The notes beneath the pieces were generated by a model. It was not told the DNA's origin. It saw nothing but the letters and a program-made list of their open reading frames with translations, and ran no database searches. Below, one piece after another: positions 5,530 through 61,515 of a DNA stretch of 64,000 bases (the first letter of the stretch is position 1; every line of letters starts with the position of its first letter). Source of the DNA: Escherichia coli (GTDB taxonomy: Bacteria > Pseudomonadota > Gammaproteobacteria > Enterobacterales > Enterobacteriaceae); the NCBI GenBank assembly GCA_025544715.1, contig GCA_025544715.1_4109.3, one strand, 5' to 3'. A program made the translations under genes and the position numbers.

Positions 5530-5540
5530 TATATTCTCCG

Positions 5541-5568
5541 AAAAGAAAGGACTCTGTGGTCAGAGTCC
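5541..5568 (-). terminator. Rho-independent terminator
   Basis: Hairpin GGACTCTG-ACCA-CAGAGTCC then T-rich tract. Confidence 0.6.
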
Positions 5569-5578
5569 TTATTTTAAA

Positions 5579-5836
5579 TTATTCTTCTTCACCGAAACGG
5601 ATTTTCTTTAATTCTTTTCGATGCTTTCTAGCTATTGTACTTTTGTGAAGTCTATTACTGCGTTTTGTGTCTTTTGTAATGTACCATGAATCTTCTGGTG
5701 CATCATAATCACAAAATCCATCTTCCGTAATTGTTCCTAAAAATGCAGATTTTTTAGGAATATTAGTTTGAGCTTTAGCCTGAAATTGACCTTTTGCTAA
5801 TTGTTCACGAAAACTGAGCATAATAGTATCTCCCAA
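5579..5836 (-). CDS. Hypothetical protein (85 aa)
   Basis: ORF in array; terminator just downstream. Confidence 0.4.
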   Translation of the reverse strand: MGDTIMLSFREQLAKGQFQAKAQTNIPKKSAFLGTITEDGFCDYDAPEDSWYITKDTKRSNRLHKSTIARKHRKELKKIRFGEEE

Positions 5837-6868: not shown

Positions 6869-7981
6869 TTAGAACATTTGTTTGATTGCTTCGTAACGAA
6901 GTTCACAAACAAAATCACGAATTTCTGACGTTTCAAGTTCACCATCTTTAACCATTTGCTGAATATCAGGTAATTCAACATCAGTATAACGATCATAAAC
7001 TTTAATAATTAGATCTTCAAGTTCTAAATCAATTTCTTTTCGCAAAATGAAGTATTCCAAAACTTTATAAAGGAATTCTTCACCTCCGTTATTTTTAATA
7101 TTCATATCCAATAAAATATTACCCATTTCAATTGGGGTCTTTTTACGGAATGTTTTGATATCATCACGGAAACGTTTGATATAATTACTAAATTTAACAT
7201 ACTTAACTGGAACTTTAATAGCACCGTTAAGTACTGAATCATTATTTACTTCTTCATTTTCTAGAAGAATAGACCACAGAAAATATGGTTTATATACATC
7301 AGTACAGTTATCTGAAATATAATCAATAAGGTCTAAATTCTTTTTGGTCAAAGATGTATTAAACACCTTTTCGTAATAACCAAATTTACTTAGCGTCTTA
7401 AGGAACTTTGAAGGCTTTTCTTCAGAAAATGCTTTTTCGAATTCCACAAAAACACGGTCAGGAACAAGATGATTTAGCTCACCACTATTGACCATTCCAA
7501 TAGCGAGTTCCTCAGTGCTTTCATGAATAGTAAAGTCTGAATAACGAGTAGCAAATCGAGCAAGACGTAACACGCGTAATGGATCTTCTTTAAAATGGTC
7601 AGAAACATGACGTAGTACCTTGTTCTTGATATCAGCTTTACCACCGTATGGATCGATGTGAATTTGTAGTACTGGATCATACGCAATTGCATTAATTGTA
7701 AGGTCACGGCGATACAAATCTTGTTCTAGTGTTACGCCTTTTGTATCCACTTCAAAGCCACCATATCCAGTACCAGTTTTACGCTCAGTACGGGCTAATG
7801 CGTGTTCATTACCTTCTGGACTTAGATATACTGGGAAATCCTTACCTACTTGCTTATAGCCAATACTTTGCAAGTACTTAAGATCAGATTCGGATGCACC
7901 AACAATGACATAATCTTTGTCTTTTGCACGAAGACCCATTAAACGGTCACGGACGTAACCGCCAACCAAATACTTTTTCAT
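6869..7981 (-). CDS. cca: tRNA nucleotidyltransferase (CCA-adding enzyme / poly(A) polymerase family)
   Basis: Head-domain motifs GGYVRDRLMG...DKDYV and RRDLTINA. Confidence 0.75.
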   Translation of the reverse strand: MKKYLVGGYVRDRLMGLRAKDKDYVIVGASESDLKYLQSIGYKQVGKDFPVYLSPEGNEHALARTERKTGTGYGGFEVDTKGVTLEQDLYRRDLTINAIAYDPVLQIHIDPYGGKADIKNKVLRHVSDHFKEDPLRVLRLARFATRYSDFTIHESTEELAIGMVNSGELNHLVPDRVFVEFEKAFSEEKPSKFLKTLSKFGYYEKVFNTSLTKKNLDLIDYISDNCTDVYKPYFLWSILLENEEVNNDSVLNGAIKVPVKYVKFSNYIKRFRDDIKTFRKKTPIEMGNILLDMNIKNNGGEEFLYKVLEYFILRKEIDLELEDLIIKVYDRYTDVELPDIQQMVKDGELETSEIRDFVCELRYEAIKQMF

Positions 7982-19763: not shown

Positions 19764-20183
19764 TTACAACATTTTTTGAATATGTTCTGCTAGTTCATAC
19801 AGCTTAGTTTCATTATTCTCGAACTTTTCATCAACTTGAACATTGAATTTTTCTTCTAGTTCCATGACCATTTCAATCCAATCAAGCCAATCAAAATTGA
19901 ATTTTTCTTCAACTTCCAATTTAGTAAGATTGAAGTTCGCTAATACATCATTCTCTGATGTATCAGAGTAACGAGTAGTGATGAATTTGACAATTTCTTT
20001 TTCAACATCGTTTAATTCACTAGTTTGATATTCTGGCTGAAGATACCACCATTCTCCCTTATTAATAGATTCCAATTCTTGTTTGATTTCATGCATTACT
20101 TTATAACGGTCAGTACTTTTATGAATAGAATTAACTTCTTGATTCAATACATGTAGTGCATTTTTAATACGTTCATTTAACAT
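19764..20183 (-). CDS. Acyl-carrier-protein-like protein with N-terminal extension; Ser to Trp at pantetheine site
   Basis: FDWLDWIEMVMELEEKFNVQVDEKF aligns with ACP helix II DSLDTVELVMALEEEF; codon TGG at Ser position. Confidence 0.5.
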   Translation of the reverse strand: MLNERIKNALHVLNQEVNSIHKSTDRYKVMHEIKQELESINKGEWWYLQPEYQTSELNDVEKEIVKFITTRYSDTSENDVLANFNLTKLEVEEKFNFDWLDWIEMVMELEEKFNVQVDEKFENNETKLYELAEHIQKML

Positions 20184-20195: not shown

Positions 20196-20226
20196 TAAAA
20201 AAAGAGAACTCCATATGAAGTTCTCT
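20196..20226 (-). terminator. Rho-independent terminator after 929-aa gene
   Basis: Hairpin AGAGAACT-loop-AGTTCTCT then T-rich tract. Confidence 0.6.
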
Positions 20227-20257
20227 AATTATACATAATTACTTTTTCTATGTCAAG

Positions 20258-23047
20258 TTATAAATCACGGAAACGATTTGGTGTGTTTAAACGGTACATT
20301 GAGTATAACCCCAATCCACGCATAATCTCACCTGCCCAGAAACCAAAAAACATACCATTATCAGTACCTTCTCTAACTGCTGGACTCCATGATCCATTCA
20401 TTGGGGAACTTGGATTTACAATAACATAATTCTTTTGAAGTTCTAAAACTAAGTTATCAGCGAGTGTCGTTAGACCTTCTATTTTACATCCAGCTAATCC
20501 AGCAGCACAAGCCCCAGCTAACCACAACCCACACATATGACCTGTAAAGTCCCAATCTGGTCCTTCAACTGTGCCATCTTTATTGAAGATTGTTGGTGAA
20601 CGACCATCATTATCTTTTTGAAATTGAATTAAAAAGTGAATCCAATTCTCACAAAAATCAACAAGATCTGCTGGTGGTTCGATTCCTCTTTCTGCAAGTT
20701 CTTGCCATGCTCTTGCAGCCCCAAAGAATGCACGAGGTTCATACCCGCTCCATGCTTGATCTCCCCAGTGTAGCATTGTGAACGTGTCTGGTTCACCATA
20801 TTTTAAGTTATCCCAGCGGTTCCAAACATATGCTTGTGCACATGGACCAACAGTACCGAATTGTTGAGTAAACCATGTTTGAGAATCTTTCATAAAGCTT
20901 AACATGTTGCCTAAACGTGTGTTATCTACTGGTTGGTCTTTAAAACAATATATCACTGGATACTGATAACCAGGATAAGGCAATCCACGCCAACCAGAAT
21001 ACTGATTCGCATACGGGTCAGTGATGTTAGAAAATGGTATTGTTCCAGGAGTGTAATGCAATGAGTTTAACAAATAATCTTTGATTACACAATCCCCTAA
21101 CTGTGCAGTATAAGGTGATTCACCTGCAATTGTTATTGAGAATGTCATGGTATAGTCATCACCGTCAGCATCCGTATATAATTCTGGAATGTCATTAATA
21201 CAATACCAATCAATTATTGCAGCAACACCATCTACTGGGGTTGTATCAGGTAAAATAGTAATATCTTCTAGCTCACTATAAACTGGTGCATCTGGTCTTG
21301 GATCAGAACTTGGATGATTTGGCTGATACCCAGATAAACGTAATGTATCAGAACTTAGTGTGATAGTAGTCCATTCCCCGTGTGTTGCAGGAATCATCCA
21401 CCACCATCTCCAACCATTATCATCTACAATTCGTATATTATAATCATCTTCATATGAACGATATGTGAAAGATTTAACTTCAGACTTATTTGTTGCTAAT
21501 AACCAAAATCCAATAACAGCACCATCATCTTCACCACAAACCAACTGATTAATTGTATCGCGTCTTGTGATTAATATATCAGTACTATATAACATTTCTG
21601 ATGTAGCTGCACCATAAGGAACAACAATTCTACTATCAGCAATTATATAAGGGGAACCATCTGCTTTCTTTTCTCTAACAAATGCACTTAAAGGTGTTAA
21701 TGAATGTGTGATATTTTGGTCTTTACTTTCTGGTAAGCCGCAACGATAACGAACAACATCATGGTCATTTTTTGTTTTTGACAATTCCAGTACTGGTTTA
21801 AATGATAACGGTTTACCATCATCGCACACGCCACCATAGTCAACTAGCAATTTTGAATCAGCATTTACCCTGAACCAAATAGCTTGTTGCTCCATCGTAC
21901 TCTGTGCACTTTGGTCTTGTCTGATAGTAATGTATCCTAACGAATTTCTACCAAACTTAGCAATAGCATCACTTGGATAAAAATATTCATAGGAAATACC
22001 ATCAGTGAATGGTGTGGTTACAATTGTACTTTGTCTGAAAAATTTATCTCTGGAGTCGATATCACCATAAGCATAGCATGTGAGTAGTGAACATTTCCAA
22101 CCCAAATAATGTTTTCTTTCTTTAGTTATTTTATATAACAAATACGAAGCATCACTGAACCATAATTCTGCATCTGATGCGTTATCAGCAAATTCTAAAT
22201 TAATTGGAACATGAAGTGGGCGGTTGTGTTGCATTTCATTTCGTTGAATTATTACACCACCATATTCTACTGGTTGACGATTAGCAAAATTTAATTTATA
22301 TACACCATTAATTGTTGTATTCTTTAATTGAACAGTTCCTTTTTCAGATTCGTCAAAACCTTCTGCTAAAATATTACCATCCCAGTCGATTTTTCTACCC
22401 ATGAAATCAATAACCCAGTCAACATCATATTGTTCACCTGGTGTATCCCAATCAACACTACCATCTGGTAATAAAGCTTTTACTGACGCATTTATTTGGT
22501 TCCATGCTAAAGCACCTTTGAATGCAAATGTCACTTTATCCAAGAACTGACCATAATATGGTGCACCATGTGGTATTTTGCATTGACCATTAGTAAATGT
22601 AAATTCTACTCCCTTGAAACCACCATGTGTGGGCCAGCCATCATCAGCTAAAGGCCAGTTAGCCAATATAGGTTCTTTTGCATTAACTATCCAGTTACAT
22701 TGTAGCGGTGTAGGTGGATCTGGTAATTCACGTCCAGCATAAAAGTACTGATGATATGCGTCCCAATACCACTTTGCCTTATCTAAAAACATTGGATCAT
22801 TTGTAGCCAGATATGCATAAATGTATCCTAAAATTAATAGACTTTGACCTTCTGTTGTCCCGTCACCGTTTGGTTGACCTTCCATTGCAGAATAGTTAAT
22901 AAAATGGCGGTTGTTCGCCAAAACACCCTGATTGTTCACCACATAATGCTGTACTGTTGGGTCTATTGTATCACCAGTATTTCTTTCAATAAATTTGTGA
23001 TGCCCATAAAGAAGTTGTACAATATTATCAATATTATTGTTTAACAT
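20258..23047 (-). CDS. Large protein (929 aa), unknown function; possible glycosidase-like or virion-associated
   Basis: Long ORF; Trp/Gly-rich C-terminal region; followed by terminator. Confidence 0.55.
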   Translation of the reverse strand: MLNNNIDNIVQLLYGHHKFIERNTGDTIDPTVQHYVVNNQGVLANNRHFINYSAMEGQPNGDGTTEGQSLLILGYIYAYLATNDPMFLDKAKWYWDAYHQYFYAGRELPDPPTPLQCNWIVNAKEPILANWPLADDGWPTHGGFKGVEFTFTNGQCKIPHGAPYYGQFLDKVTFAFKGALAWNQINASVKALLPDGSVDWDTPGEQYDVDWVIDFMGRKIDWDGNILAEGFDESEKGTVQLKNTTINGVYKLNFANRQPVEYGGVIIQRNEMQHNRPLHVPINLEFADNASDAELWFSDASYLLYKITKERKHYLGWKCSLLTCYAYGDIDSRDKFFRQSTIVTTPFTDGISYEYFYPSDAIAKFGRNSLGYITIRQDQSAQSTMEQQAIWFRVNADSKLLVDYGGVCDDGKPLSFKPVLELSKTKNDHDVVRYRCGLPESKDQNITHSLTPLSAFVREKKADGSPYIIADSRIVVPYGAATSEMLYSTDILITRRDTINQLVCGEDDGAVIGFWLLATNKSEVKSFTYRSYEDDYNIRIVDDNGWRWWWMIPATHGEWTTITLSSDTLRLSGYQPNHPSSDPRPDAPVYSELEDITILPDTTPVDGVAAIIDWYCINDIPELYTDADGDDYTMTFSITIAGESPYTAQLGDCVIKDYLLNSLHYTPGTIPFSNITDPYANQYSGWRGLPYPGYQYPVIYCFKDQPVDNTRLGNMLSFMKDSQTWFTQQFGTVGPCAQAYVWNRWDNLKYGEPDTFTMLHWGDQAWSGYEPRAFFGAARAWQELAERGIEPPADLVDFCENWIHFLIQFQKDNDGRSPTIFNKDGTVEGPDWDFTGHMCGLWLAGACAAGLAGCKIEGLTTLADNLVLELQKNYVIVNPSSPMNGSWSPAVREGTDNGMFFGFWAGEIMRGLGLYSMYRLNTPNRFRDL

Positions 23048-23048
23048 A

Positions 23049-23585
23049 TCATACTCCTGCTCTAATTAATGCACCGTACCATGTAACTCCTTTATCATAT
23101 GTTTCTAATGAAATAATATCTTTTTCACCAATTTCATAAGAAAGAACAACTGGTCTATTATATGACCATTTAACATTTGAACCCCAATTAACGAGGTTAG
23201 ACCCTGTTTGCTGAGTTAATAGGATAGTAATTGAATAAACTTCAGTAGGAGCAGCACCAATAGCAATAGTGGTATTTCTGTCAGATAAATTAATATTAAA
23301 AACTGTATTACCTGATAGGGGATTAATTAAAATATTATTAGAACTCAATACATTATATAACTTGTTACTAGCACTATCATACAATGTTACCCATTCTGTT
23401 TCATGATTCTCATTAGTAGCTTTAGCTTTTATTTTTACATTATTTTCGGAAGAAGTCATTCCAGTCCAGCCAGAAATAATAAAAGAACTGTTTTTATTTG
23501 TTCCAAATGATGCAATTACCGAATCACTAAGAGAACTATCTTCACCGTCAATAGATCCGAGTACTGACAATGTTAAAACCATCAT
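23049..23585 (-). CDS. Hypothetical beta-rich protein (178 aa), possibly fibre-like
   Basis: Ser/Thr/Asn-rich composition. Confidence 0.45.
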   Translation of the reverse strand: MMVLTLSVLGSIDGEDSSLSDSVIASFGTNKNSSFIISGWTGMTSSENNVKIKAKATNENHETEWVTLYDSASNKLYNVLSSNNILINPLSGNTVFNINLSDRNTTIAIGAAPTEVYSITILLTQQTGSNLVNWGSNVKWSYNRPVVLSYEIGEKDIISLETYDKGVTWYGALIRAGV

Positions 23586-23748
23586 TTTTAATGTCTACAC
23601 CAGTTGCACCTGAAAAATTATTTTGAAATTTAATAACTCCGGTAGTGTGGATATCTGTGAAAATTTGTTGTGCCATACTTAATCCTTGCGTTAATTTATA
23701 TTGAGTATTTATCGAGTATAATGGCATTTTTAGTACCATTATACTCAT
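23548..23748 (-). CDS. Hypothetical protein (66 aa); may be joined to 23049-23585 by frameshift
   Basis: 38-nt out-of-frame overlap with downstream ORF. Confidence 0.3.
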   Translation of the reverse strand: MSIMVLKMPLYSINTQYKLTQGLSMAQQIFTDIHTTGVIKFQNNFSGATGVDIKNDGFNIVSTRIY

Positions 23749-23753: not shown

Positions 23754-24986
23754 TTACTTATACCATTGCATTTCTCTGATATCAATGATAATTTTTGATG
23801 CTAATTTAATGTTTGGTTTTTTGGGAAGTACTGATTTCTTATATAGAACATCACGAATGTATTGTACTTTATCATCGAAATATTCTAATACTTCTTCATA
23901 CTTCCACTTACCATTACGAATATCCATCAACATTTGTGCATCAGGTCGTTTAACTTGAATAATTCCACTCTGTAATGCTTCTTCTGCACTATTCAAAAGT
24001 CTAATTGTGTGCATAGCATGTTTACAATCGTATCCGTGTTGTGATTCTAAAATAGCACGTTTGGCATTACGATTTTCTTTCCATTTATGATAACTTTTCC
24101 TATTCTCACTATTCTCCTGATATTCTTTTTCGTTAAATTTTACAATTAGTTCTGGTTTGGTTTTCAACTCTTCAGTACTACGTTCTTTAGAAAAATAACG
24201 CAATGAACCATCATGGTTAATAGTGCTTTCATTAGGATTCTTAACAATCGCAAAAATGTTTTCTCCGTAATGAATTAGTTCATAACCATTATTAAAATTC
24301 AATAAATTGAAATCACGATCAAGAATTTTTTCAGTAGTGTAGTTATGTACTAATCTTACGAAATGATATTGCTTTAATGGATTTTTCGAAACTAACTGCA
24401 ATGATGTATCACGCATATATTTTTCAAAATCAATCTTTTTAGCATTAAATGGATGTAAGTTGGATGTATCTAAACGTTCAACAAGATACTGTGGGAATGA
24501 ATCATACATCCACGCAAGAACCTCATCGACAGGGTGTTCTTCTAAAATCTCATTTAATCGTTTTTCAGCAATACGCTCTTTATCCATCCAACCGTGATGA
24601 TTTGTCATACGCTTAATCTGATTATATGCATATCCAGTGTATGAAAATGCAATCTTGGAACTAAGAAGTTTTTGGTTAAATGAACGAAGATAGTCATAAA
24701 TTTCAGTACTTTCAACAATGTGTTCAGGTTCAACCCAAAGTGATTCAAGAATATTAGGGTTAGCTTCAGTGTATAATTTTAAATACTGATTCAACTCATA
24801 GAATTTAGTATCTTCTTCGCTTTTATCAGCTACCTCTTTGACCTTATAGAAGGGTGTAAGAATAAATTCTTTATTAGCAAGAAAAATACCACGATAATCA
24901 GTATCACTTTCAGGTGTACTGGTTCCGTAGGCTTGTGACCCAGCCAAGTGTTTCACTATTGTTTGTTCAATATATTGGTTATTCAT
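23754..24986 (-). CDS. Pol-beta-superfamily nucleotidyltransferase
   Basis: N-terminal motif GSQAYGTSTPESDTDYRGIF (GS...DxD). Confidence 0.5.
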   Translation of the reverse strand: MNNQYIEQTIVKHLAGSQAYGTSTPESDTDYRGIFLANKEFILTPFYKVKEVADKSEEDTKFYELNQYLKLYTEANPNILESLWVEPEHIVESTEIYDYLRSFNQKLLSSKIAFSYTGYAYNQIKRMTNHHGWMDKERIAEKRLNEILEEHPVDEVLAWMYDSFPQYLVERLDTSNLHPFNAKKIDFEKYMRDTSLQLVSKNPLKQYHFVRLVHNYTTEKILDRDFNLLNFNNGYELIHYGENIFAIVKNPNESTINHDGSLRYFSKERSTEELKTKPELIVKFNEKEYQENSENRKSYHKWKENRNAKRAILESQHGYDCKHAMHTIRLLNSAEEALQSGIIQVKRPDAQMLMDIRNGKWKYEEVLEYFDDKVQYIRDVLYKKSVLPKKPNIKLASKIIIDIREMQWYK

Positions 24987-25384
24987 AGATAAATTGTTAA
25001 CTCCTTTAAGAAACCATTATAATAACGATTAAAGTCATGTTCTAATGTTTTATAATCATCAAAACTAAAACCTAAATTGATAATTGTATCTTCTTGAAAG
25101 AAAGTTTCTTCATTCATACATTCAATAGGTTCGTAATTAATTCCACCTTTGAAAACTTTTGTAAAAAACATTCCATCATTATTAATTTCAACATACATAA
25201 AATTATTTTCTGGGTCACGAGGACAGACGATATTCAGTGAACTATTTCCACTCGTATTGTACTCATAAGAAATTATATCAAAAGAATCAATACCATAACA
25301 CTTAGATTTTTCTTTATCGCCAAATACTTTTCTATCTGTACTCATATTGCGTATAGTGCTATAGATATCATCAACTGTAGTCAT
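24983..25384 (-). CDS. Hypothetical protein (133 aa)
   Basis: ORF in array. Confidence 0.45.
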   Translation of the reverse strand: MTTVDDIYSTIRNMSTDRKVFGDKEKSKCYGIDSFDIISYEYNTSGNSSLNIVCPRDPENNFMYVEINNDGMFFTKVFKGGINYEPIECMNEETFFQEDTIINLGFSFDDYKTLEHDFNRYYNGFLKELTIYL

Positions 25385-25386
25385 AG

Positions 25387-25896
25387 TTAACCACCATACT
25401 TTGACTTGTATGTTTCAAGTGATAAAGATATACGATTTTGCTTTTTAATTCTTTCATCAATATCCTTTGAATTCTTCACACTTCGGTATACGTCAGCTAA
25501 TAAATTATAATCTTCTTTATTTGAGCTATGCTGTGTCCAACCTATGTCTGTTTTAATACGAACACTTGCTTTATTTGACCAGTAAAAGAAACTGAAACCA
25601 TTTGACCCATCAAAAATATCAAAAGTATCTACCCAATCACCATAAGGAAAACTCGTCGGGACTGACTCGTGGTCGATTGTGATATCCGATAAATTGTTTG
25701 AACAGTACTTCGCAAAGTGATAAACAATTGGATCACATTTAGATAATTCATATTTGTATTCAATGATAGTTTTTCTATTAGCATCATTGATAGCATATTC
25801 TTTCATCAATGGGCTTTTTTTGATGATAAGAGTCCACAGAAACGATTCTAATCCGGTTTCATCAACTTTTTGTTTCTTTTTGAAAAATGAAATCAT
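25387..25896 (-). CDS. Hypothetical protein, member 1 of tandem triplicated family
   Basis: Shared block DxxRKxIIEYKYxLSK with the next two ORFs. Confidence 0.5.
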   Translation of the reverse strand: MISFFKKKQKVDETGLESFLWTLIIKKSPLMKEYAINDANRKTIIEYKYELSKCDPIVYHFAKYCSNNLSDITIDHESVPTSFPYGDWVDTFDIFDGSNGFSFFYWSNKASVRIKTDIGWTQHSSNKEDYNLLADVYRSVKNSKDIDERIKKQNRISLSLETYKSKYGG

Positions 25897-26414
25897 TTAT
25901 ATAAACCCTTAATTTTCTGTCTATTATGTATATCATTTTGCTGGATTTTCAATTTAGTAAGGTTGTTTCTTACACCTTCAACTCCACGCATTATTTGTAA
26001 CATAATTAGTGATTCGTCATATGTTAGTACATTGCTATTATTATCGATATATACTTTCACTCCACTTTCAAGATAATCATTTTCTTTGGAGTTAAAGTTT
26101 CTAATAGCAAACTTAACTTTATTTGTTGTATCACTGAATACATATCGTTCCGCACCGTAGAATGTTTTTCCACGAAATAAACCGCCGTCTTCCCACTTCC
26201 AACGGCTAGATTCATAATCATTAACGTAATCAAGGATTAAAGAAAGTAAAGGATGTTTACTTAATTTATATTTTGCTTCTAACAGGATACGTCTATCATT
26301 ATCTGTGGTGATAATATCCTTTAGTGAGTAGCTTTTAGATATAATTTTAAAGATAATTTCATGCCAAATTAATGTACTGTTTTGTTTTCCAACTGATCCA
26401 AAAAACATATCCAT
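25893..26414 (-). CDS. Hypothetical protein, member 2 of tandem triplicated family
   Basis: DNDRRILLEAKYKLSK and SSRW blocks. Confidence 0.5.
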   Translation of the reverse strand: MDMFFGSVGKQNSTLIWHEIIFKIISKSYSLKDIITTDNDRRILLEAKYKLSKHPLLSLILDYVNDYESSRWKWEDGGLFRGKTFYGAERYVFSDTTNKVKFAIRNFNSKENDYLESGVKVYIDNNSNVLTYDESLIMLQIMRGVEGVRNNLTKLKIQQNDIHNRQKIKGLYK

Positions 26415-26420
26415 TCCTCA

Positions 26421-26987
26421 TTAGTATAAATCAGTAATGTCTTTGTATGCATTAATCTGTTTTTGTTGTAATGAAAGTTCATTGAGTTTAGTTACCATCT
26501 TATCTACACCAACACGTGTATAGAAAATAATTAATGAATCTAAATTGCCTAGAGTAATTCTTGAACTGTAAGTTGAAAGTTTTCTTGCATAAACATAAAT
26601 TTCTTCTTCACTTGGTAAACGTTTCTCAATCAGCAAGTTTTCCACACCATTCGGCTCATAATCAATCTCGAACTCTACGCCTATCACTGTGTCTTGAATG
26701 CGATCCGTATATGAACCACCGTAAAAATACTCTCTTGGTTTGGATCTCCAACGAGAACTAAATGGGTCTGTTGCGTATTCTTTTACAAATTTGTAAAAGG
26801 ACATTTTACTGAGCATATACTTCATCTCAATTAGTGCTTTGCGGTCATCATCAGTTTTAAACTCTGCTTTGAGCGATGGACTTTTACACAGTAACTTAAC
26901 TAAATTGTTGTACATCTTTAATGTACGTTGTTCTTTCATTTCTTTGATTTTGTGACGTTTTGGTGGTGGTAATAAAGATTTGACCAT
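26421..26987 (-). CDS. Hypothetical protein, member 3 of tandem triplicated family
   Basis: DDDRKALIEMKYMLSK and SSRW blocks. Confidence 0.5.
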   Translation of the reverse strand: MVKSLLPPPKRHKIKEMKEQRTLKMYNNLVKLLCKSPSLKAEFKTDDDRKALIEMKYMLSKMSFYKFVKEYATDPFSSRWRSKPREYFYGGSYTDRIQDTVIGVEFEIDYEPNGVENLLIEKRLPSEEEIYVYARKLSTYSSRITLGNLDSLIIFYTRVGVDKMVTKLNELSLQQKQINAYKDITDLY

Positions 26988-27020
26988 AATTTCCTCCTAT
27001 TTTTATTCAATTATACACAT

Positions 27021-27048
27021 AAAAGAAAAGCCCGTCAATAGACGAGCT
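27021..27048 (-). terminator. Probable terminator after fibre-like gene
   Basis: Imperfect hairpin AGCTCGTC-TATT-GACGGGCT then TTTTCTTTT. Confidence 0.45.
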
Positions 27049-27054
27049 TTAAAT

Positions 27055-29784
27055 TTATTTCCAACGTGTACCTGGACCTGATGGTACACCAGTACTGGCA
27101 GGTATCGCTGAACCACGTTTCGTTGTACTTGGGCGATATGTCAAAAAACGAGTCACTTTTTCAGTATCAATCGAAGTAATTCCTGAAGTTCCAGTAACTA
27201 TCTTACCAATGTAAGTGCTAGTTAAAGATTCATCAATAGTTTCAGTACTAATAACATATGACGCTTTCTTAGTATTCCTGTTCATTTGTATATACAAATA
27301 GAACGTAGTATTAGCTGGATTACTTTTTACCGTACTTAAATCTACACTTTGTATAGGTAGTCTGTCGAAAATTCCACCTAAAAACACCGGAACTTCACGT
27401 GTAAAGTACACTGAGAATCCTTGTGCAACGTCTTGTGATACTACCACAATCTTTTCTTTAACGCTACCATTTCCGCTAATTAAACCATCCATTTCAGCAG
27501 ATGTTGTACCAAAAACGCTGAATACAGATTTGGTTTGATAGTCAGAATCTTGAAAATTGTAATATCCAAAACCAACACCAGGAATAACACCATGTTGATA
27601 TGCTGCACCGAGTTGGATGTAACTAGATGACAAAAAACGATTTGATGTTATGACACCATCTACCGTTTTAGCTATCATCATCTTAAATTGTGCATTACCT
27701 GGTTGTGAAAATTGATGAACTGCATCAACACCAATGTAACCGAATCCTGAATATTTAGCAACTGTTAGACCAGTACAACGTTTCATATATGCTTCAGTAA
27801 TAATTCCTGTAACAGAACTAAGTGTCTCATATCTAGTACTTACCAATGAAGCTGAAGTTATGTTAGTTCCAGATAATACAACATCAACTTCGGCATAAAT
27901 TGCATAACCTTGGTTATTGTTAAGATTATATGCTGAAACTACTGCAATGGATTTAGAAAAAGTATTATCAGGTACATAATATAATACAATTTGTCCAGAT
28001 AGTGTACCAACAATGCCAGAGTTTCCTAGATTAGCAAAAATATCTTGTTTTAATGATTCTAATACCGTTGGTTCTATTGTATATGTTTCATCAAATTCTA
28101 AAGTATCTGGGTTTAATAATCCACCACTTGTTTTATATACACCTTCAATGAATGATGTTCCATAGCATCTAACACTACCATCGGTATCAACAAGAGAAAT
28201 CATAGCAGTGTATGTAAAATCATCACCTATTTGTTTACGATTAGATTGTGGTGCAAAACCATTTAATGTAGTATTATTTTGAACTGAGTTATATTGATAT
28301 GTTGGTTGTGAGCCTATTTCAGAAAAAACAGTATTATTATAATTATATGTTACATCATCATACGTACCAGAACATGCTAATAATATTTTTCTATTATCGA
28401 TGAAACGTACACCTAATAGGTTTGCACCAACAGCACTACCAAAAACTGGTAAAACGTTTGCATTTATAACGTTACTTGCGGATCTAGTACTAGCAACCCA
28501 TGAATCAAACGGTGTGCCACTAACCTTATATCGTTGTAGACCATAAAATTCAGTTGAACTCCATCTAAATTTAGATGCAAATACTAAACCATCTTTGGTT
28601 TGACATAAACCACCTGCGTTTCCTAATACACCAGCAGCAGTTGTCCCAGTGAAGTTGACCATATCGATTTCAAATGGGTTAGAAACTTGAAATCCATTAT
28701 TATATGAAACTGTAGCAGGAGCACGAGCAGAACCATCTAGTGACATAGATTTTGAGTTTATATTATAAACAAAACTGATACCAGTACCATACACTGTTGA
28801 AATATATAAAGGTGTAACCATTCTATGTGTTGGGTATAAAGTTACACGTATTTTGGATAAATCAGTACTAACGTTTGCTTGTATATTAAAGTCTGTATAA
28901 TCCGAAAATTCTACACGTGAGACTGGTGATGTAACTTCGAATAATGAATCCGAGCTAGTACCAACACTATATAATCTATCAAACACTCTTATGTTATTAG
29001 ATGCAGAATAACTTGTATTTCTAACAGTTTGCCCTGATAATCCAGTAACTTTTGTTAATGATGCCATTGAGCTTGCTTTCACATCACTTAGCTCTACTGT
29101 ATAAATTGAAAGTGCTAATCCTAAATTAGAAACACTTTTATCTTTACACCAAATATATACTTTTGTTCCAACAATATGAGTATATATAGGCATATCATTA
29201 CCAAAAGAAGTACTTGGTACTTTAGCATGAATATGTGATACTTCGTTGAATGTACCATTAGTTATAGTAAAAATATAATTATCTTCTGTACTTAAACATC
29301 CAAGCATTTCATAACCATTAGAGCCAATAAAATACTTAATATTCTCTGTACTACTCATAATTGAAGGTTTATACATTGAATTGGTTGAAATAACACTTTC
29401 TTGTGAAATCATGGTTATATTTCTGATTTCTCGTATAAATGAATAATAAAAACCTTTAGTACTGCCATTCGTCCCACTACGTAGAACAACAGCAGTACCA
29501 TCATCTTCAATAATAGTCGGTTGAACAACTTGATCACTTGACATAGGTGTAGCACCTTCATACGACCCACTTACGTTTAATGGTAAGTAATCCATTTCTC
29601 CTACACGTGATATAGGCAACATATCTAAAATACTTTGAACTTCAGAACGCTTGTATATTGGATATTGAACAATTCCAGTATTTGCATTCGGTGAGGTTCC
29701 ATTGAAAGTACGCATAGCGTACCTTCCTCCAATTGCTAAGTTCCCAAGGATCTCGGCACTTCCTATAATTCGTTTTGATGACAT
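27055..29784 (-). CDS. Tail-fibre-like large protein (909 aa from ATG 29784), paralog of 30400-33096
   Basis: Start MSSKRIIG parallels paralog MSKKIYGG; track start 29874 would overlap upstream gene; shared C-terminal module incl. KSNPANTTFY. Confidence 0.5.
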   Translation of the reverse strand: MSSKRIIGSAEILGNLAIGGRYAMRTFNGTSPNANTGIVQYPIYKRSEVQSILDMLPISRVGEMDYLPLNVSGSYEGATPMSSDQVVQPTIIEDDGTAVVLRSGTNGSTKGFYYSFIREIRNITMISQESVISTNSMYKPSIMSSTENIKYFIGSNGYEMLGCLSTEDNYIFTITNGTFNEVSHIHAKVPSTSFGNDMPIYTHIVGTKVYIWCKDKSVSNLGLALSIYTVELSDVKASSMASLTKVTGLSGQTVRNTSYSASNNIRVFDRLYSVGTSSDSLFEVTSPVSRVEFSDYTDFNIQANVSTDLSKIRVTLYPTHRMVTPLYISTVYGTGISFVYNINSKSMSLDGSARAPATVSYNNGFQVSNPFEIDMVNFTGTTAAGVLGNAGGLCQTKDGLVFASKFRWSSTEFYGLQRYKVSGTPFDSWVASTRSASNVINANVLPVFGSAVGANLLGVRFIDNRKILLACSGTYDDVTYNYNNTVFSEIGSQPTYQYNSVQNNTTLNGFAPQSNRKQIGDDFTYTAMISLVDTDGSVRCYGTSFIEGVYKTSGGLLNPDTLEFDETYTIEPTVLESLKQDIFANLGNSGIVGTLSGQIVLYYVPDNTFSKSIAVVSAYNLNNNQGYAIYAEVDVVLSGTNITSASLVSTRYETLSSVTGIITEAYMKRCTGLTVAKYSGFGYIGVDAVHQFSQPGNAQFKMMIAKTVDGVITSNRFLSSSYIQLGAAYQHGVIPGVGFGYYNFQDSDYQTKSVFSVFGTTSAEMDGLISGNGSVKEKIVVVSQDVAQGFSVYFTREVPVFLGGIFDRLPIQSVDLSTVKSNPANTTFYLYIQMNRNTKKASYVISTETIDESLTSTYIGKIVTGTSGITSIDTEKVTRFLTYRPSTTKRGSAIPASTGVPSGPGTRWK

Positions 29785-29800
29785 CTTTCTTTTCCTTAAT

Positions 29801-30388
29801 TTACCAACCAATTGTACCAGTTTCTGATGGTTTCCCAGTACTGACTGGGAATGAAGAACCTTTTTGTGTAACACTAGGTCTATATGTACTAAATCTGGAT
29901 ACTTTATTAATGTTTATATTTGTAATGCCACTTGTACCAACGGTAAGAGTTCCAATAAACATTATAATTTCAGATTCTTGTATTTGTGTTGGTGATACTT
30001 TATATATTGGTTCACCGAGAACTAACGTTGCATATACATATTGTGTTTGTGTCCCAGATGAAACTGTTGAAGCAAAAATAGAAACTGCTGGAAATTTATA
30101 AAGATAACCACCAATAAATGATGGTATTTCTCTATTAAATGTAAGACTATAACCAGACGAAGTAATATTTAGACTTGCATCATCATACAATTCACCGTAT
30201 TGTGTGAGTGGTAATCCATTTACAATAAAATTAACTTCATCTTTAGTAATAGAGGGGAATGTACATTCCCCATTTGAATTTGTTGGGTAATAAGTCATAT
30301 TATTACCTAATACACCAAGTCCAGTACTTTTACCCTGTACTGTAACTTGTTGCATTGCCTTAAGGTCTGCTCTTATTTTATATGCCAT
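29801..30388 (-). CDS. Short fibre-like protein (195 aa) carrying the shared C-terminal module
   Basis: C-terminus SSFPVSTGKPSETGTIGW parallels large paralogs. Confidence 0.5.
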   Translation of the reverse strand: MAYKIRADLKAMQQVTVQGKSTGLGVLGNNMTYYPTNSNGECTFPSITKDEVNFIVNGLPLTQYGELYDDASLNITSSGYSLTFNREIPSFIGGYLYKFPAVSIFASTVSSGTQTQYVYATLVLGEPIYKVSPTQIQESEIIMFIGTLTVGTSGITNININKVSRFSTYRPSVTQKGSSFPVSTGKPSETGTIGW

Positions 30389-30399
30389 TATGTAATCCT

Positions 30400-33096
30400 T
30401 TACCAGTTTATGGTTCCTGTTTGTGATGGTAGACCGTAGCTAACTGGGAACGATGAACCTGCTGATTCAAGTGAAGCACCAAATATATCTAAACGTGAAC
30501 GTTTTTGTATATTAATTGTTTCGATTTGAATTGCATTAGTTTGAATTGTACCTATCCAAAAAATATTATATGCAGTTGTTCCTGTTTCAGAAATAACATC
30601 AGTAGTTATGTAATAGTTTGCCAATCCTTGGTCCAATTTAACATATACATAAAATGTTGTATTTGCTGGATTAGACTTAATAGTTCTCAAATCAATATTT
30701 GAAACTGGTAGTGAAAATGACTTACCTGAAAGAATAACTGGTGTTTCTTCTGTAAAATATACAATAAACCCTTGAGCAACGTCCTGTGATACTACGTTAA
30801 TTGGGCTACCTTGTGCAGTCCAGTTATTATAGTCTGTAATCGTTGTCCCATATTTTTTGAATGTCATTTTATTTGAGTAATCCATTGGTTCAAAAATTCC
30901 AAAACCAATACCAGGTAACGCTGCTGGTTGACTTCCCTGTTCATAACTGGCATGAGAACCAGTAATTATAAAACTTGTAAATTGTGCAGTTGATTTAGTT
31001 ACATATGCTCTAAATTGATGAGTTGCAGTATTACCTATTGTTGGATGTGATAATGGGTCAGAACCACCAATGAAGTAGAATGAACCTCCATCATATATTG
31101 TCAAACCAACAGAAGAAGATGCAATCGAACCATTTCCAGTTGGTGTAAAGTTATCACCATACGTATTCTCAAGTACTAAACGCTTGAATGTAATAGATGT
31201 AATATTACCAACTCTAGTATTGACGTTAACTTCAGCAATTCTAATATAGTTTCTATAATCATTAGTAATTGTACTCAACATAACAAAAGCTGGAATGTCT
31301 GTTTGTTGTGGAACAAATAGTGTCATATCACGGTATGCTTGTGGTGATAAATTCCAATCACTTAGAACTTTAGCATATTCAGTATTTCTAAAATTGTCCA
31401 GTACTGATTGTGTAACACTTATAATGCCTGTACCATTTAAGTTTTTATCATAGGATAATGATTGTGAATAACGTTGCCCAACCATAAAAATACCACCATT
31501 GGTTGTAACAGTTGACCCAGAAATACTACTAATGAAAATTCTATTATTTGCATTATCATCAACGTTAGCACGTTCAACTGTAGGTTCATAACCTTGTATT
31601 GTTCCTAAAGATAATGATTTAAATGTAAAATTAGGAGTACTTTTATGAACTGCATATGATGGTCTAAATCCACCACTACCTGATGCACGTGAATATTGTT
31701 TAGTACTGTTATCTGGTAGTAATTCTACACCATTAATAAATGAACCAACCGCTGAACCAAAAGACGGGCGAACTATACCACCTTTGAAGTCAGTAGAAAG
31801 TACAGCACGCACATTCAGCATACTATAAACTATTTGAATAGGAAACTTAGCTTTTTGCATAAGCAATGGTTCTGCTAAGTTTGGACATGCAGTACAAAAT
31901 GCTTCACCTGAATTTAAATAAAAATATGAACTGTAAATATTCCTTGCATTTGCATGGTTATACAATGGATCGTTATTTAAAACGTTTCCAGTAGGAACTA
32001 ATGCTGAACCGGTATCAGTAATAACTAATGGTGCTTGGTATGAACCAATATCATTACCTGCATCTAATGTACATTGTTTAGTACTCATGTTGAATACAAA
32101 ACTGTAACTATGTTGTGGTCGTGTATTATAAGTTGCCATTGTGAACCAAGCATCACCATTCATTCTAAAGCGGAAGTTCTGTGTACCTGGCTGCTGTGCA
32201 ACACATAAATCGATTGATGTCATGTAAATCCCAATACCACGTAGATTTTTTGGAACATACACATAAGGTTTATCAGCGATATTTGTTGATGTTACCTGAT
32301 TAGTTATAACCATATTATTTTGTGCAGAATAAGTTGTGTTATAAAATGTTTTAGTAGTCCATCCAGTAACACGAGTTGCGGTATAAGTACCATTACTGAT
32401 ATTATAAACCACTTTAACTACAACTAATTGTAATTGGTTATTTGCATTAAGTACGTTAAAAACATATATAGAACCATCTTCTGCCATCATAGCATATTCA
32501 ATACCACCTTCAGGTGATATATCTGCTTGGTTAACGAAAAAACCAGTATGCAATTTATCATCTAATGTACCATTAGTAATTGATATGAACAAACCATTAG
32601 TACTGTTAGAAGTGTCTACATATCTACCGAGTAAAATATTTGGATCAGTATTGTATAAGCCAATTGCGACTCGATTAGAACCGAAAAAACCAGGCTTGTA
32701 TTGACGACTGGTGTTAATTGTACGGCTCATGTCATCAACTGATAATGCGTTAGCCAAATATGAATAAAATAATCCCTCAACACTACCGTTTGTTCCACTA
32801 CGTAAAAGTACTAGTGTACCATCGTTTTCTAATAAAATTTTATTTCTACGTTGGGTCTGGTTTTCGGATGCACCATTGAAATCTCCAGAAACACCAGCAG
32901 GTAGATAGTTTTGTGAACCATAATGGGAGATTGGCATCATGCTTACTATATCTAGTACTTCATCTCTGGAATACGTGTCTAATTCCATGTTACCATTTGA
33001 ATCAAACACTTGTTCATTTATTCCTTGAATTGTTCTTTTACCATTAACTGTCACATTATGTGTGACATCTAAGCCACCATATATTTTCTTTGACAT
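30400..33096 (-). CDS. Tail-fibre-like large protein (898 aa)
   Basis: Paralog of 27055-29784; TATAAATA-like box upstream; Ser/Thr/Asn/Gly-rich. Confidence 0.5.
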   Translation of the reverse strand: MSKKIYGGLDVTHNVTVNGKRTIQGINEQVFDSNGNMELDTYSRDEVLDIVSMMPISHYGSQNYLPAGVSGDFNGASENQTQRRNKILLENDGTLVLLRSGTNGSVEGLFYSYLANALSVDDMSRTINTSRQYKPGFFGSNRVAIGLYNTDPNILLGRYVDTSNSTNGLFISITNGTLDDKLHTGFFVNQADISPEGGIEYAMMAEDGSIYVFNVLNANNQLQLVVVKVVYNISNGTYTATRVTGWTTKTFYNTTYSAQNNMVITNQVTSTNIADKPYVYVPKNLRGIGIYMTSIDLCVAQQPGTQNFRFRMNGDAWFTMATYNTRPQHSYSFVFNMSTKQCTLDAGNDIGSYQAPLVITDTGSALVPTGNVLNNDPLYNHANARNIYSSYFYLNSGEAFCTACPNLAEPLLMQKAKFPIQIVYSMLNVRAVLSTDFKGGIVRPSFGSAVGSFINGVELLPDNSTKQYSRASGSGGFRPSYAVHKSTPNFTFKSLSLGTIQGYEPTVERANVDDNANNRIFISSISGSTVTTNGGIFMVGQRYSQSLSYDKNLNGTGIISVTQSVLDNFRNTEYAKVLSDWNLSPQAYRDMTLFVPQQTDIPAFVMLSTITNDYRNYIRIAEVNVNTRVGNITSITFKRLVLENTYGDNFTPTGNGSIASSSVGLTIYDGGSFYFIGGSDPLSHPTIGNTATHQFRAYVTKSTAQFTSFIITGSHASYEQGSQPAALPGIGFGIFEPMDYSNKMTFKKYGTTITDYNNWTAQGSPINVVSQDVAQGFIVYFTEETPVILSGKSFSLPVSNIDLRTIKSNPANTTFYVYVKLDQGLANYYITTDVISETGTTAYNIFWIGTIQTNAIQIETINIQKRSRLDIFGASLESAGSSFPVSYGLPSQTGTINW

Positions 33097-33130: not shown

Positions 33131-33138
33131 TATTTATA
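33131..33138 (-). promoter_or_regulatory. T4-late-promoter-like box TATAAATA (minus strand)
   Basis: Exact octamer ~35 nt upstream of start codon 33096. Confidence 0.3.
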
Positions 33139-33172: not shown

Positions 33173-33643
33173 TTAAAAATCTTTATTTTTATATAGTATT
33201 CTTTGATTATTTGAACCACGGAAAGGTAATTTTAAATTCTTTTCGGACTCGATAAACTTACCATCAACTAATACATCTAAGTACTGAAGTATATCTTTAG
33301 AATGATTTTTCATAATCTCATCTAAAGTATACCCACTCCAGCACCAAATAGTTTTACTAGGATAAGTTTCTTTAACTACTTTGCATAGATTTAAAACTTC
33401 ATCTATATTCTTTTTCATTAATGGATCGCCGCCTAGAAGTGATAAACCACTAACATATGGTTTTTTTAGTTCCTGTAGTATAATCTCAACTGTTTCAGTA
33501 CTGAACTCTTGACCACTTCTGTAGTCCCATGCTTCTTCATTGAAGCAACCATCACATCCGTGCGAACACCCACTAACAAATAAAGAGCAGCGAACACCCT
33601 CTCCATTTACTAAATCATCCTTGATTATCGTCTGGTAATTCAT
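33173..33643 (-). CDS. nrdG: Anaerobic ribonucleotide reductase activating protein (radical SAM)
   Basis: CxxxCxxC cluster GCSHGCDGC near N-terminus; adjacent to nrdD. Confidence 0.85.
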   Translation of the reverse strand: MNYQTIIKDDLVNGEGVRCSLFVSGCSHGCDGCFNEEAWDYRSGQEFSTETVEIILQELKKPYVSGLSLLGGDPLMKKNIDEVLNLCKVVKETYPSKTIWCWSGYTLDEIMKNHSKDILQYLDVLVDGKFIESEKNLKLPFRGSNNQRILYKNKDF

Positions 33644-33947
33644 CTAATATTGCACTCACTATTTCGACAAGAACATCGCCGTGACATGATTTGGGTTTAC
33701 AGAAACAACCAAGGCGTTTCCCTGCGAGTTCAAGTAATTCATCAATCTTAACTTCTCCACAAGAAATACGTTCAATAATGTATTCTCTGAATTTTTCAAT
33801 TGATTCTTCTCTTGTACTAACAATGAATTCGGCTTTGGTTTGTTTATCTTTAATATGGGTAAATGGGTTTCCCCATTTAGACCCACGCCCAATATACACA
33901 TCATACGGTTCTTTGTATTTGTTAACCACAATTGGCTTTAAATCCAT
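33615..33947 (-). CDS. Conserved hypothetical protein between nrdD and nrdG (possibly DUF4326-like)
   Basis: YIGRGSKWGNPF motif; family name from memory. Confidence 0.4.
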   Translation of the reverse strand: MDLKPIVVNKYKEPYDVYIGRGSKWGNPFTHIKDKQTKAEFIVSTREESIEKFREYIIERISCGEVKIDELLELAGKRLGCFCKPKSCHGDVLVEIVSAILDELPDDNQG

Positions 33948-43171: not shown

Positions 43172-43723
43172 CTATAGATAACTAATTAGTAAGTTTTCTT
43201 TTTGAACCAGATACTCCAATTCTTGTTTTGCTGTACCGATGAAGTTCTGTGTCATAAGATTATTATATCCCGCTTCTCGATTTTGTCCCTTAGAATAACG
43301 AGAAATATGACATAAATTTACACCAGCAACTTCAGCACTCGCATGTTTAGCATTAGTGTATCCATCTCTAATGTGTTTCAACTCGTCATAGCTTACTTCA
43401 TAGCTAAAACTATGACTGTTTGCACCTGGGTAAATTTCAAAAGTTTTGAGTGGTCGGAGATGGGAAACAAAAATATTGTAATCCATTTCTTCTTGAACTT
43501 CACGACGCAATGCATCTTCTAATGAGATATCAGTACTTTCTACGGTTCCACCACATCCACCAAGAAGACCATCCCATCGTAATTGTAGTAAAACTAAATT
43601 TACTTCTGGTATATCATTCAACTCATAGTTTTTGTAAGGGTTGCATTTTCTTGCAAAGAAATAACAAAATACAAAATTTGCACGTGAGCCATATTCACCA
43701 AAGGGAACTTCTTTAACACTCAT
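43172..43723 (-). CDS. Nudix-like hydrolase (second copy)
   Basis: Degenerate Nudix box ...RREVQEEMDY; operon with Sir2 and CPR. Confidence 0.5.
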   Translation of the reverse strand: MSVKEVPFGEYGSRANFVFCYFFARKCNPYKNYELNDIPEVNLVLLQLRWDGLLGGCGGTVESTDISLEDALRREVQEEMDYNIFVSHLRPLKTFEIYPGANSHSFSYEVSYDELKHIRDGYTNAKHASAEVAGVNLCHISRYSKGQNREAGYNNLMTQNFIGTAKQELEYLVQKENLLISYL

Positions 43724-44478
43724 TTCATACGTTCCTTAATTATAGTCTCTAGATGTGGTATTGCTTTGGTTGCTGGCTTGATAACTTTTTCATTAAACAA
43801 AAAATCATTATCATTTTTACGAATGTTAACATTAACACTATAACATGGCAATGCTGCTGCTAATCTCGACCATACCAGTACTGTATCGCTACTACCAATT
43901 ACAATAACTGTATCATTTTCATTAAGAGATTTCAACACATTATTTCGTTCTTCGTAAATTGGTAAGCGAATACCATCAACATAACGATGATATTCTCCAA
44001 TCATTACTACATTTGGTTTAGCAAAAACATCATGCTTTGGTATGTATGGTTCGTATCCGCAGTTAATAACATTATAATCATCGGAATTAATACTATAATT
44101 TTCAATAACTTCGCACAAGTTTCCATGAAGTTTAAGCTCATGACCACCAATACGAGTATAAAGATCATCCATGTTAGAAGTCATATGAAGGAAGCAATCA
44201 CCATATTGATCTTCTAACGATTTTATAAAATAATGCATTGCATTGGGTTCGCATTGTCCCAATTTTACACGTAATGTATTATAGAAGGAATGAACAACGT
44301 GATATTTTGTAGTTAAACTAGCAATGTTACATACATCATTAATTTTAAATGTATCCCACAAACCATCATCAAATCGAAAAGGTTCCATACCACTTTCAAC
44401 GGAAAGTCCTGCACCTGATATAATCAGTAATCGTTTTTTACCTTCATTGCTTATAAATTTTTCTGATATCATATTCAA
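43720..44478 (-). CDS. Sir2-family (sirtuin/CobB-like) NAD-dependent enzyme
   Basis: GAGLSVESGMEPFR, PNAMH, TSNMDDLYTRIG, HGNL align with CobB GAGISAESGIRTFR, PNAAH, TQNIDNLHERAG, HGEL. Confidence 0.75.
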   Translation of the reverse strand: MNMISEKFISNEGKKRLLIISGAGLSVESGMEPFRFDDGLWDTFKINDVCNIASLTTKYHVVHSFYNTLRVKLGQCEPNAMHYFIKSLEDQYGDCFLHMTSNMDDLYTRIGGHELKLHGNLCEVIENYSINSDDYNVINCGYEPYIPKHDVFAKPNVVMIGEYHRYVDGIRLPIYEERNNVLKSLNENDTVIVIGSSDTVLVWSRLAAALPCYSVNVNIRKNDNDFLFNEKVIKPATKAIPHLETIIKERMK

Positions 44479-46263: not shown

Positions 46264-46409
46264 ATATAGTACTTAAACACTTAAGTCAAACTTTTTCTGT
46301 ACTTAACTCAAATTTCCCTCATCAGATAATCCCCTTAGTACAATCACTGTGAAGATTCTATCACAAACCCATACCAAATGTAAAGCTTTTTTTATAAGGA
46401 GTGCCCTTC

Positions 46410-61270: not shown

Positions 61271-61515
61271 TATAATAAACCTCTCACATAAAACATTGAT
61301 GAAAATAGATAATCATTAGTACTTGTGTTTAGTTGTTTAGAAAAGTTATATTTTTTATCTTTATTTTCGTATAAAGACAATCTATAGAACATTTCTATAT
61401 TTTCTAAGTATTCTTTTTGTAACAACATCTGTGTTTTTACATTCATTACAATATACCTTAAAAGAAAAAGGGACCAACATATGATCCCTTTTGTATTAGA
61501 AATTTCCTTCTGCAA
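61270..61515 (-). CDS. Hypothetical protein (81 aa)
   Basis: ORF in array. Confidence 0.35.
   Translation of the reverse strand: MQKEISNTKGIICWSLFLLRYIVMNVKTQMLLQKEYLENIEMFYRLSLYENKDKKYNFSKQLNTSTNDYLFSSMFYVRGLL

Follow-up and report, generated by a model that had tools for sequence, protein, structure and literature searches.

What three small, strongly diverged genes are doing between two groups of tail fiber-like genes of a jumbo coliphage is the question raised by the locus considered here. It lies on contig GCA_025544715.1_4109.3 of Escherichia coli assembly GCA_025544715.1, of which a stretch of 64,000 nucleotides (the window) was analyzed. The DNA is that of a phage of the 121Q / PBECO4 / phAPEC6 / G17 group of the genus Asteriusvirus, a 2.2-kb region being 97-98% identical to those genomes. 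The genes, designated A, B and C, are followed by a gene for a 133-aa protein (g133) and one for a 410-aa nucleotidyltransferase, and their products are hypothetical proteins in all database records. The three open reading frames (ORFs), all on the minus strand, are exactly at the positions given in an initial annotation, which saw in them a tandem, fast-diverging family of the sort that can encode host-takeover or anti-defense specificity factors. As set out below, the three are true paralogs of a family restricted to one phage clade, and, with much less assurance, they may be accessory factors in the repair of damaged RNA.

The first issue is whether they are related at all. Two blocks had been taken as common to the three. 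One of these, D..R..I.E.KY.LSK, is indeed present in all, in the form D.[DN]R..[IL][IL]E.KY.LSK; the other, SSRW, is confined to A and B, with LSDITIDH at the same place in C. By BLASTP A and B align over their full length with 31% identity (E=9e-16). Pairwise alignment of C to either is limited to the N-terminal ~40 residues (E=9e-5), a feature that gives some encouragement to the idea of chance or compositional resemblance. However, once orthologs or further family members are added, C aligns end to end and has the same architecture. In Smith-Waterman comparisons with 2000 shuffles the z score is 22 for A-B, 6.4 for A-C (2 of the 2000 reach the observed score) and 5.0 for B-C (1 of 2000), whereas that for the neighboring protein g133, used as a control, is ~0. 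Because the shuffle scores are high and unrelated g133 gives next to nothing, the similarity is not compositional. PHROG profiles cross-match in both directions (A and B are in phrog_18641, E ~1e-79 to 1e-84, and C is in phrog_7868, E=2.6e-56), and a family hidden Markov model (HMM) matches A, B and C each at E<1e-48. The three are paralogs of one family. With the same HMM no further copy was found among all ORFs of the window; g133 (hhalign probability against the family 0.2%) and a 154-aa ORF of RaK2 were considered as extra, more diverged copies and rejected.

The rate at which they change sets them apart from their surroundings. Identity to the corresponding proteins of phage A4 is 36% for A, 34% for B and 38% for C, compared to 41-52% for the fiber-like proteins, 60% for g133, 81% for NrdG and 87% for the nucleotidyltransferase, so that the paralogs are the fastest-diverging genes of the neighborhood and the rapid divergence originally described is borne out. 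It is divergence under purifying selection with relaxed constraint. By the Nei-Gojobori method, with three relatives at ~90-93% DNA identity for comparison, the ratio of non-synonymous to synonymous substitution rates (dN/dS) of A is 0.16-0.30, that of B 0.17-0.18 and that of C 0.10-0.12. The corresponding values for g133 and the nucleotidyltransferase are 0.03-0.06 (0.03-0.07 for the latter over all comparisons), and pN/pS of the paralogs against their closest relatives does not exceed 0.33. With values of 0.10-0.33, well below 1, selection is purifying and positive selection is ruled out gene-wide; a 4-to-0 non-synonymous excess in C relative to G17 and phAPEC6 involves too few sites for interpretation. 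These ratios, the retention of all copies across genera and a confident structural model (see below) also speak against the ORFs being non-functional, and that possibility, taken together with chance similarity, is scarcely credible. A separate matter is a recombination breakpoint inside the operon, seen on comparing phage Turkey3 with the window (23754..26987): the synonymous divergence (dS) of A is 0.08, of B 0.28 and of C 0.45, while that of g133 is saturated and that of the nucleotidyltransferase 2.2.

Fast divergence might be thought to go with a dynamic or expanding array, and copy number had been proposed as a check on this. The dynamic array did not survive it. With the family HMM applied to every ORF of the loci retrieved, three copies were counted in both Asteriusvirus lineages (121Q-type and A4-type) and in Munch / fENko-Kae01 (where the middle copy is very diverged), two in RaK2-like phages and two metagenomic contigs, and four in Erwinia phage pEa_SNUABM_44. 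In a neighbor-joining tree two lineages stand apart, an ‘SRW-type’ with A, B and the copies that come first in other arrays, and a ‘C-type’ with those that come last; a third group is found in Eneladus-like phages. The order of subfamilies within the array is conserved, and the array occupies the same position across the clade. From the stable 2-4 copies, the orthologous lineages kept across genera and the conserved order, the array results from old duplications that predate the genera, and not from recent expansion. Individual copies are not always intact in database records. Truncated paralogs (fragments of 114-163 aa) are present in some, including those of Salmonella phages SD-1_S14 and SD-2_S15 (P0006, P0011, P0012), and B is fused to C in phage CMSTMSU (P0010); either frameshifts in sequencing or genuine decay of single copies could account for these.

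The family is a narrow one. When 1.84 billion representative proteins were searched exhaustively with the profile in HMMER, only 31 clusters at 50% identity were recovered, all of single-domain proteins of ~150-200 aa, and the single ‘E. coli’ entry among them is on a 344-kb contig taken to be a phage genome. (A second word-indexed homolog search, with a wide profile, gave fewer matches than the first, and the exhaustive search was the informative one.) With tblastn, members were found in Asteriusvirus, in RaK2/K64-1 (Alcyoneusvirus), in Munch / 7t3 / fENko-Kae01, in Eneladusvirus (Serratia BF, Erwinia pEa_SNUABM, Yersinia fHe-Yen9-03 and -04), and in Xanthomonas XbC2, Pectobacterium CBB, Cronobacter GAP32 and Erwinia Kaldavass. 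These phages make up the whole clade of ~350-kb RaK2/GAP32-like jumbo phages, and the family was found in no other. Both PHROGs that match its members over their full length are designated ‘unknown function’ and are held as separate families; from their cross-matches, common architecture and tandem position they are treated here as two subfamilies of one.

How the array is expressed is pertinent to its function, and to the suspicion, natural from its position between two fiber-gene groups, that its products are tail-fiber assembly chaperones or other fiber accessories. On the coding strand, genes for fiber-like proteins of 898, 195 and 909 aa are followed by a terminator and then by A, B, C, g133 and the nucleotidyltransferase gene, beyond which come a small virion gene, genes for fibers of 178 and 929 aa, and another terminator. 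The array is always directly downstream of the three large fiber-like genes, and since chaperones are expected to be absent from virions, their absence there would be no embarrassment to that proposal. What separates the array from the upstream fibers is a composite element in which the terminator hairpin of the fiber operon overlaps a near-consensus sigma70-type promoter (Table 1). Exact TTGAC-N18-TATAAT occurs just twice in the window, both times on the coding strand and adjoining a predicted terminator. The second occurrence, ahead of an acyl-carrier-like gene, differs in that its hairpin follows without overlap. Of 11 upstream regions examined, 10 (those of the window, A4, Turkey3, a RaK2-like phage, Munch, fENko-Kae01, Erwinia pEa44 and three metagenomic contigs) have ahead of the first copy a composite terminator-promoter that matches 11-12 of 12 consensus positions, and the eleventh, that of locus L019, was extracted too short to hold the -10 box. 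By locus, the element precedes the first paralog in L002, L005 (Turkey3), L008, L009, L010, L014, L015 and L018, with the -10 box 17 nt after the -35; locus L003, which is RaK2-like, has its terminator apart from its promoter. Hairpin stems vary between lineages and TTGACA is retained.

The structural genes on either side are differently marked. A T4-type late motif, TATAAATA, precedes the gene for the 898-aa fiber, and this octamer is depleted in the window (3 found versus 13 expected); a late-like motif, TATAAATT, precedes the small virion gene. Because a sigma70-type promoter heads the array while its neighbors carry late-type motifs, the array and the nucleotidyltransferase gene would constitute an early unit dependent on host RNA polymerase, flanked by late structural units. 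The unit is tightly packed, with overlaps of 4 nt between the stop of B and the start of C and between g133 and the nucleotidyltransferase gene. Electrospray tandem mass spectrometry of virions of the close relative phAPEC6 gave a list of 62 proteins that includes gp314c, gp315c and gp323c (a fiber, the small protein and the 898-aa protein; PMC7247149). On the same list gp316c-gp321c (nucleotidyltransferase, g133, C, B and A) do not appear, absence from it not being proof of absence from the virion (PMC7247149). The phAPEC6 annotation (L004, MK817115; 9695..12500 and 5149..5648) has no coding sequence (CDS) for the 909-, 195- and 178-aa fiber genes, although its DNA there matches the window at 98-99% identity, and because of this those three proteins were unable to appear in the published list.

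On motifs, not transcripts, terminator and promoter thus split the array from a fiber operon that has its own late-type TATAAATA. In addition, the upstream fibers of phage ph0011 are only 44-52% identical to those of the window, whereas its A, B and C are 87-93% identical; the downstream fiber pair is missing in Turkey3, UE-S1 and ph0011, where the nucleotidyltransferase gene is directly followed by the acyl-carrier-like gene and the array is intact; and the paralogs have no Pfam or PHROG similarity to fiber-assembly families. Given the contrast in ph0011 and the loss of the fiber pair, the array neither co-varies with the fibers nor depends on them, and a fiber-accessory function is highly improbable.

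Domain searches were of little help with what the proteins are. Pfam, NCBIfam and PADLOC gave nothing meaningful for A, B or C, Pfam gave nothing consistent among 35 family members, and a profile search of PDB sequences was empty. A model was more productive. With an 11-sequence alignment as input AlphaFold2 gave an unusable result (predicted local distance difference test, pLDDT, 50), and a 32-sequence alignment was needed; with it, B was modeled at pLDDT 86.4 (predicted TM-score 0.79) as four N-terminal helices (residues 17-65), a five-stranded sheet (72-128) and a C-terminal helix of ~40 residues (132-171). Foldseek matched this to no solved fold in the PDB (best E 0.69), and the sole significant structural matches, in BFVD, are uncharacterized proteins of the same phage clade; the family is thus predicted to have a fold without match among solved structures. 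Proteins of the XRCC4 / SAS-6 / PAXX type, with a globular head plus a long C-terminal helix, were entered among the closest known systems. Conservation peaks in the N-terminal helices (residues ~21-60) and reaches its minimum, with indels, in the beta-domain. Replacements between close relatives also cluster in the beta-domain (in C, 13 of the 18 variable positions fall within residues 71-128, whereas the C-terminal helix has none). Over the first 70 residues most members are basic (isoelectric point 9-10), and the middle domain is mostly acidic. Such an architecture, conserved basic N-terminus and variable beta-domain, fits a protein in which an anchor is joined to a specificity domain.

A basic N-terminal domain under an early-type promoter, active when regulators of the next gene class are needed, could also be that of DNA-binding transcription regulators, with the C-terminal helix as a dimerization coiled coil, and by eye D.DR..II..KY.LSK.TLY.LLKDY does resemble a helix-turn-helix (HTH) of the resolvase/transposase type. 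Yet Pfam gave no HTH family for any of the 35 members, with E allowed to reach 10, the profile was empty against PDB sequences, and the helix with D..R..KY is 15 residues long in the model, which is atypical for helix 2 of a classical HTH. Neither the profile searches nor the structural ones place the family among HTH proteins, and regulators of this kind are unlikely.

A clue to function is the company kept. The 410-aa protein at the distal end of the operon is a bona fide RlaP (Pfam PF10127, E=6.3e-16, 59.2 bits versus a cut-off of 23). RlaP adds one or two nucleotides to the 3′-OH ends of damaged RNAs, and has been proposed to put back, ahead of ligation, the nucleotides that ‘smart’ ribotoxins such as RloC take away; T4 NrdC.11 belongs to these enzymes, and which substrates and nucleotides are chosen was raised as an open problem by the RlaP authors (PMC12776372). 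Jumbo-phage RlaP has been predicted to act with RNA ligases as a counter-defense (PMC7824862). In every locus with enough flank, the family is upstream of a same-strand RlaP gene (both Asteriusvirus lineages, RaK2-like phages, Munch/fENko-Kae01, Eneladusvirus and three metagenomic contigs). In Eneladus-like lineages a gene of the Thg1 family (tRNA 5′-end repair) is nested between family members, and the cluster there also has genes for DUF4326 and for an N6/N4 methyltransferase. A Thg1 gene directly precedes P0039, the member that is most divergent of those found, and in two loci (L015, L016) a gene for an S1 RNA-binding protein comes after RlaP. The g133 gene is present in Asteriusvirus, RaK2-like and Munch-like loci with 59-60% identity across genera. 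Thg1, methyltransferase, DUF4326, g133, the 154-aa ORF and the downstream fiber pair all vary, while the family and RlaP stay linked.

From this it is tentatively proposed, as a possibility with somewhat less than even prospects, that A, B and C serve early in infection as accessory or specificity factors in phage counter-defense by repair of damaged RNA, tRNA in particular. They would be anciently duplicated, non-enzymatic, non-virion products of the promoter-proximal genes of an early operon transcribed, most likely, by host sigma70 RNA polymerase. The conserved basic N-terminal helical domain may be a common module by which the proteins dock to RNA or to a partner that they share, the beta-domain, which evolves fast, is mostly acidic and is rich in indels, may give each paralog its own target, either a damaged tRNA or a host ribotoxin, and the long C-terminal helix may mediate oligomerization. 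Action could be by presenting damaged RNAs to repair enzymes or by blocking host ribotoxins. A bolder version, and a doubtful one, is that the family is a new, fold-orphan class of RNA-conflict proteins peculiar to RaK2/GAP32-like jumbo phages and the array a multi-specificity module for counter-defense by tRNA repair, with each beta-domain recognizing either a different damaged tRNA, for presentation to RlaP, Thg1, Pnkp or Rnl1, or a different host anticodon nuclease or ribotoxin, which the paralog would block. Early timing, binding of RNA or protein, and the part played in repair or counter-defense are what we infer for the paralogs.

Several considerations weigh against this proposal. No expression data for this phage group were found in the literature, so that ‘early’ has the meaning of promoter motifs only; the Sharanji phage paper is without promoter or expression data on these genes, the Avs5/JADA paper deals with Chimalliviridae alone, and a review of jumbo phages has nothing that bears on the array. 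Searches by sequence and by structure gave the paralogs no functional domain, whether RNA-binding, nuclease-inhibitor or other, and that the N-terminal region is basic says little in favor of nucleic-acid binding. In PVP-SE1-like and T4-like phages there are RlaP genes closely akin to this one with no member of the family beside them, and because it occurs there without them, RlaP does not need the paralogs. Since every phage that carries the family comes from a single clade, syntenic across the genome, the linkage may reflect shared ancestry rather than shared function. (Remote homologs upstream of RlaP elsewhere were considered, and T4/RB3 mobD.1 and Ro1 ORFs 79 and 82 were rejected, with hhalign probability <1%.)

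There is a rival account, in which the paralogs are generic early host-takeover or anti-defense proteins with targets unrelated to RNA repair, and next to RlaP by inherited synteny. A sigma70-type promoter, non-virion status, the fastest local divergence concentrated in one domain, a phage-only distribution (the 31 clusters among 1.84 billion proteins) and the occurrence of RlaP without the family in other phages are all in keeping with it. In probability it is only a little below the RNA-repair proposal. Against it are a linkage to RlaP that persists while genes between and around turn over, and the repeatedly RNA-related nature of the genes that join the cluster (Thg1, S1, RlaP). As to the role originally envisaged, fast divergence, non-virion status, the promoter and an operon shared with an RNA-repair enzyme support it. 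No homology of the paralogs to host-takeover proteins was found, nor any sequence or structural match to known anti-defense or defense-component families; a nucleotidyltransferase identity of their own likewise found no Pfam, NCBIfam or structural match. ‘Anti-defense specificity factor’ remains a plausible description, narrowed towards RNA repair.

Some known systems bear comparison with the array. Among small early phage proteins directed at host RNases, T4 Stp acts on the PrrC system and T4 Dmd counters RnlA/LsoA, and Archease is a small activator of the RNA ligase RtcB. The likeness of the paralogs to these is a functional analogy only, that of a proposed role for small, non-enzymatic proteins, made early, in RNA cleavage-and-repair conflict, as no similarity of the paralogs, in sequence or structure, to any PDB entry was detected. 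To bacterial RtcB-RlaP-RtcA operons, and to T4 where NrdC.11 is found with Pnkp and Rnl1, the likeness is RlaP itself. Pnkp, Rnl1, a CCA-adding-type enzyme and PTH2 are also encoded in the present genome, and in sister lineages Thg1 and S1 genes are added to the paralog cluster. Unlike described RlaP operons, however, the cluster here is without RNA ligase or RtcA, and its 2-4 small paralogs plus g133 have no counterpart in those operons or beside RlaP in T4-like and PVP-SE1-like phages.

Table 1. Coordinates of the array, its control elements and other features of the window
Feature	Position	Strand	Length (aa)	Remarks
Paralog A	26421..26987	-	188	121Q gp502, phAPEC6 gp321c, G17_00421; SRW-type subfamily; phrog_18641, E=2.8e-79; family HMM E=4e-51
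Paralog B	25893..26414	-	173	121Q gp503; SRW-type subfamily; phrog_18641
Paralog C	25387..25896	-	169	121Q gp504; C-type subfamily; phrog_7868; orthologs in RaK2/K64-1 and A4
g133	24983..25384	-	133	121Q gp505; phrog_22376; between array and nucleotidyltransferase gene
RlaP-family (PF10127) Pol-beta nucleotidyltransferase	23754..24986	-	410	121Q gp506; phrog_388; conserved distal operon gene
Sigma70-type promoter TTGACG-17-TATAAT	27010..27038	-		11/12 consensus; heads operon
Intrinsic terminator hairpin of upstream fiber operon	27027..27050	-		-35 hexamer of next promoter in loop and descending arm; terminator here also in G17 annotation
GGAGG ribosome-binding site	26993..26997	-		5 nt before ATG of A; read from sequence
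Late motif TATAAATA	33131..33138	-		35 nt before ATG of 898-aa fiber gene, just after a terminator
Late-like motif TATAAATT	~23689..23696			before small virion gene, downstream of nucleotidyltransferase gene
Fiber-like genes upstream of array	27055..33096	-	898, 195, 909
Variable insertion (small virion gene, two fibers)	20258..23748	-		fibers of 178 and 929 aa; between RlaP gene and its terminator
Second sigma70 consensus TTGACA-17-TATAAT	20203..20256	-		12/12; directly after 929-aa fiber gene; terminator-like hairpin follows immediately
Acyl-carrier-like gene	19764..20183			PP-binding_2, E=7e-4
CCA-adding/PolyA_pol-type enzyme	6869..7981	-
PTH2	56407..56826	-
Pnkp	61496..62428	-
C-terminal domain of T4 Rnl1-type RNA ligase	63525..63974	-		gene runs past window end
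Sir2	43720..44478
DUF4326	33615..33947			next to NrdG
Plus-strand ORF	46401..48335	+	644

Some features of the surroundings deserve mention in their own right. The three upstream fiber-like proteins have a common C-terminal region, RF.TYRPS...G.P.S.G...W, and are strongly mosaic between close relatives, as illustrated by ph0011, in which genes flanking them are 81-98% identical to those of the window. The longest ORF for the third of them is from a GTG (939 aa), and G17 is annotated from an internal ATG (909 aa). The insertion beyond the RlaP gene is present in the window, 121Q, G17, phAPEC6 and A4. Almost all other genes are on the strand opposite to that of the 644-aa ORF, which is in the lowest-GC stretch of the window (0.29-0.31) and has no Pfam match; G17 has no comparably large plus-strand CDS annotated in the region, and the ORF may be an insertion. 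There are no tRNA genes in the window. Macro and WGR domain proteins are nearby according to the G17 annotation.

The genes themselves are already catalogued, if uncharacterized (the RaK2 phage paper has nothing on ORF001 and ORF002), and small early accessory proteins in phage clusters for RNA repair or counter-defense are already known as a type. What appears not to have been described before is the uniting of two PHROGs, the ancient array, a model without solved match, the early-promoter/terminator element and the connection with RlaP and Thg1. Were the RNA-repair link to fail, there would still be value in two ‘unknown’ PHROGs having been merged, in a confident model that no solved structure matches, and in a fiber-accessory role having been excluded. 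With RlaP and Thg1 only recently tied to repair of ribotoxin-damaged tRNA, the paralogs are testable candidates for missing specificity or inhibitor components of RlaP/Thg1-type repair. Some of the ~350-kb phages of this clade are candidates for therapy against E. coli, Klebsiella, Salmonella, Erwinia and Cronobacter.

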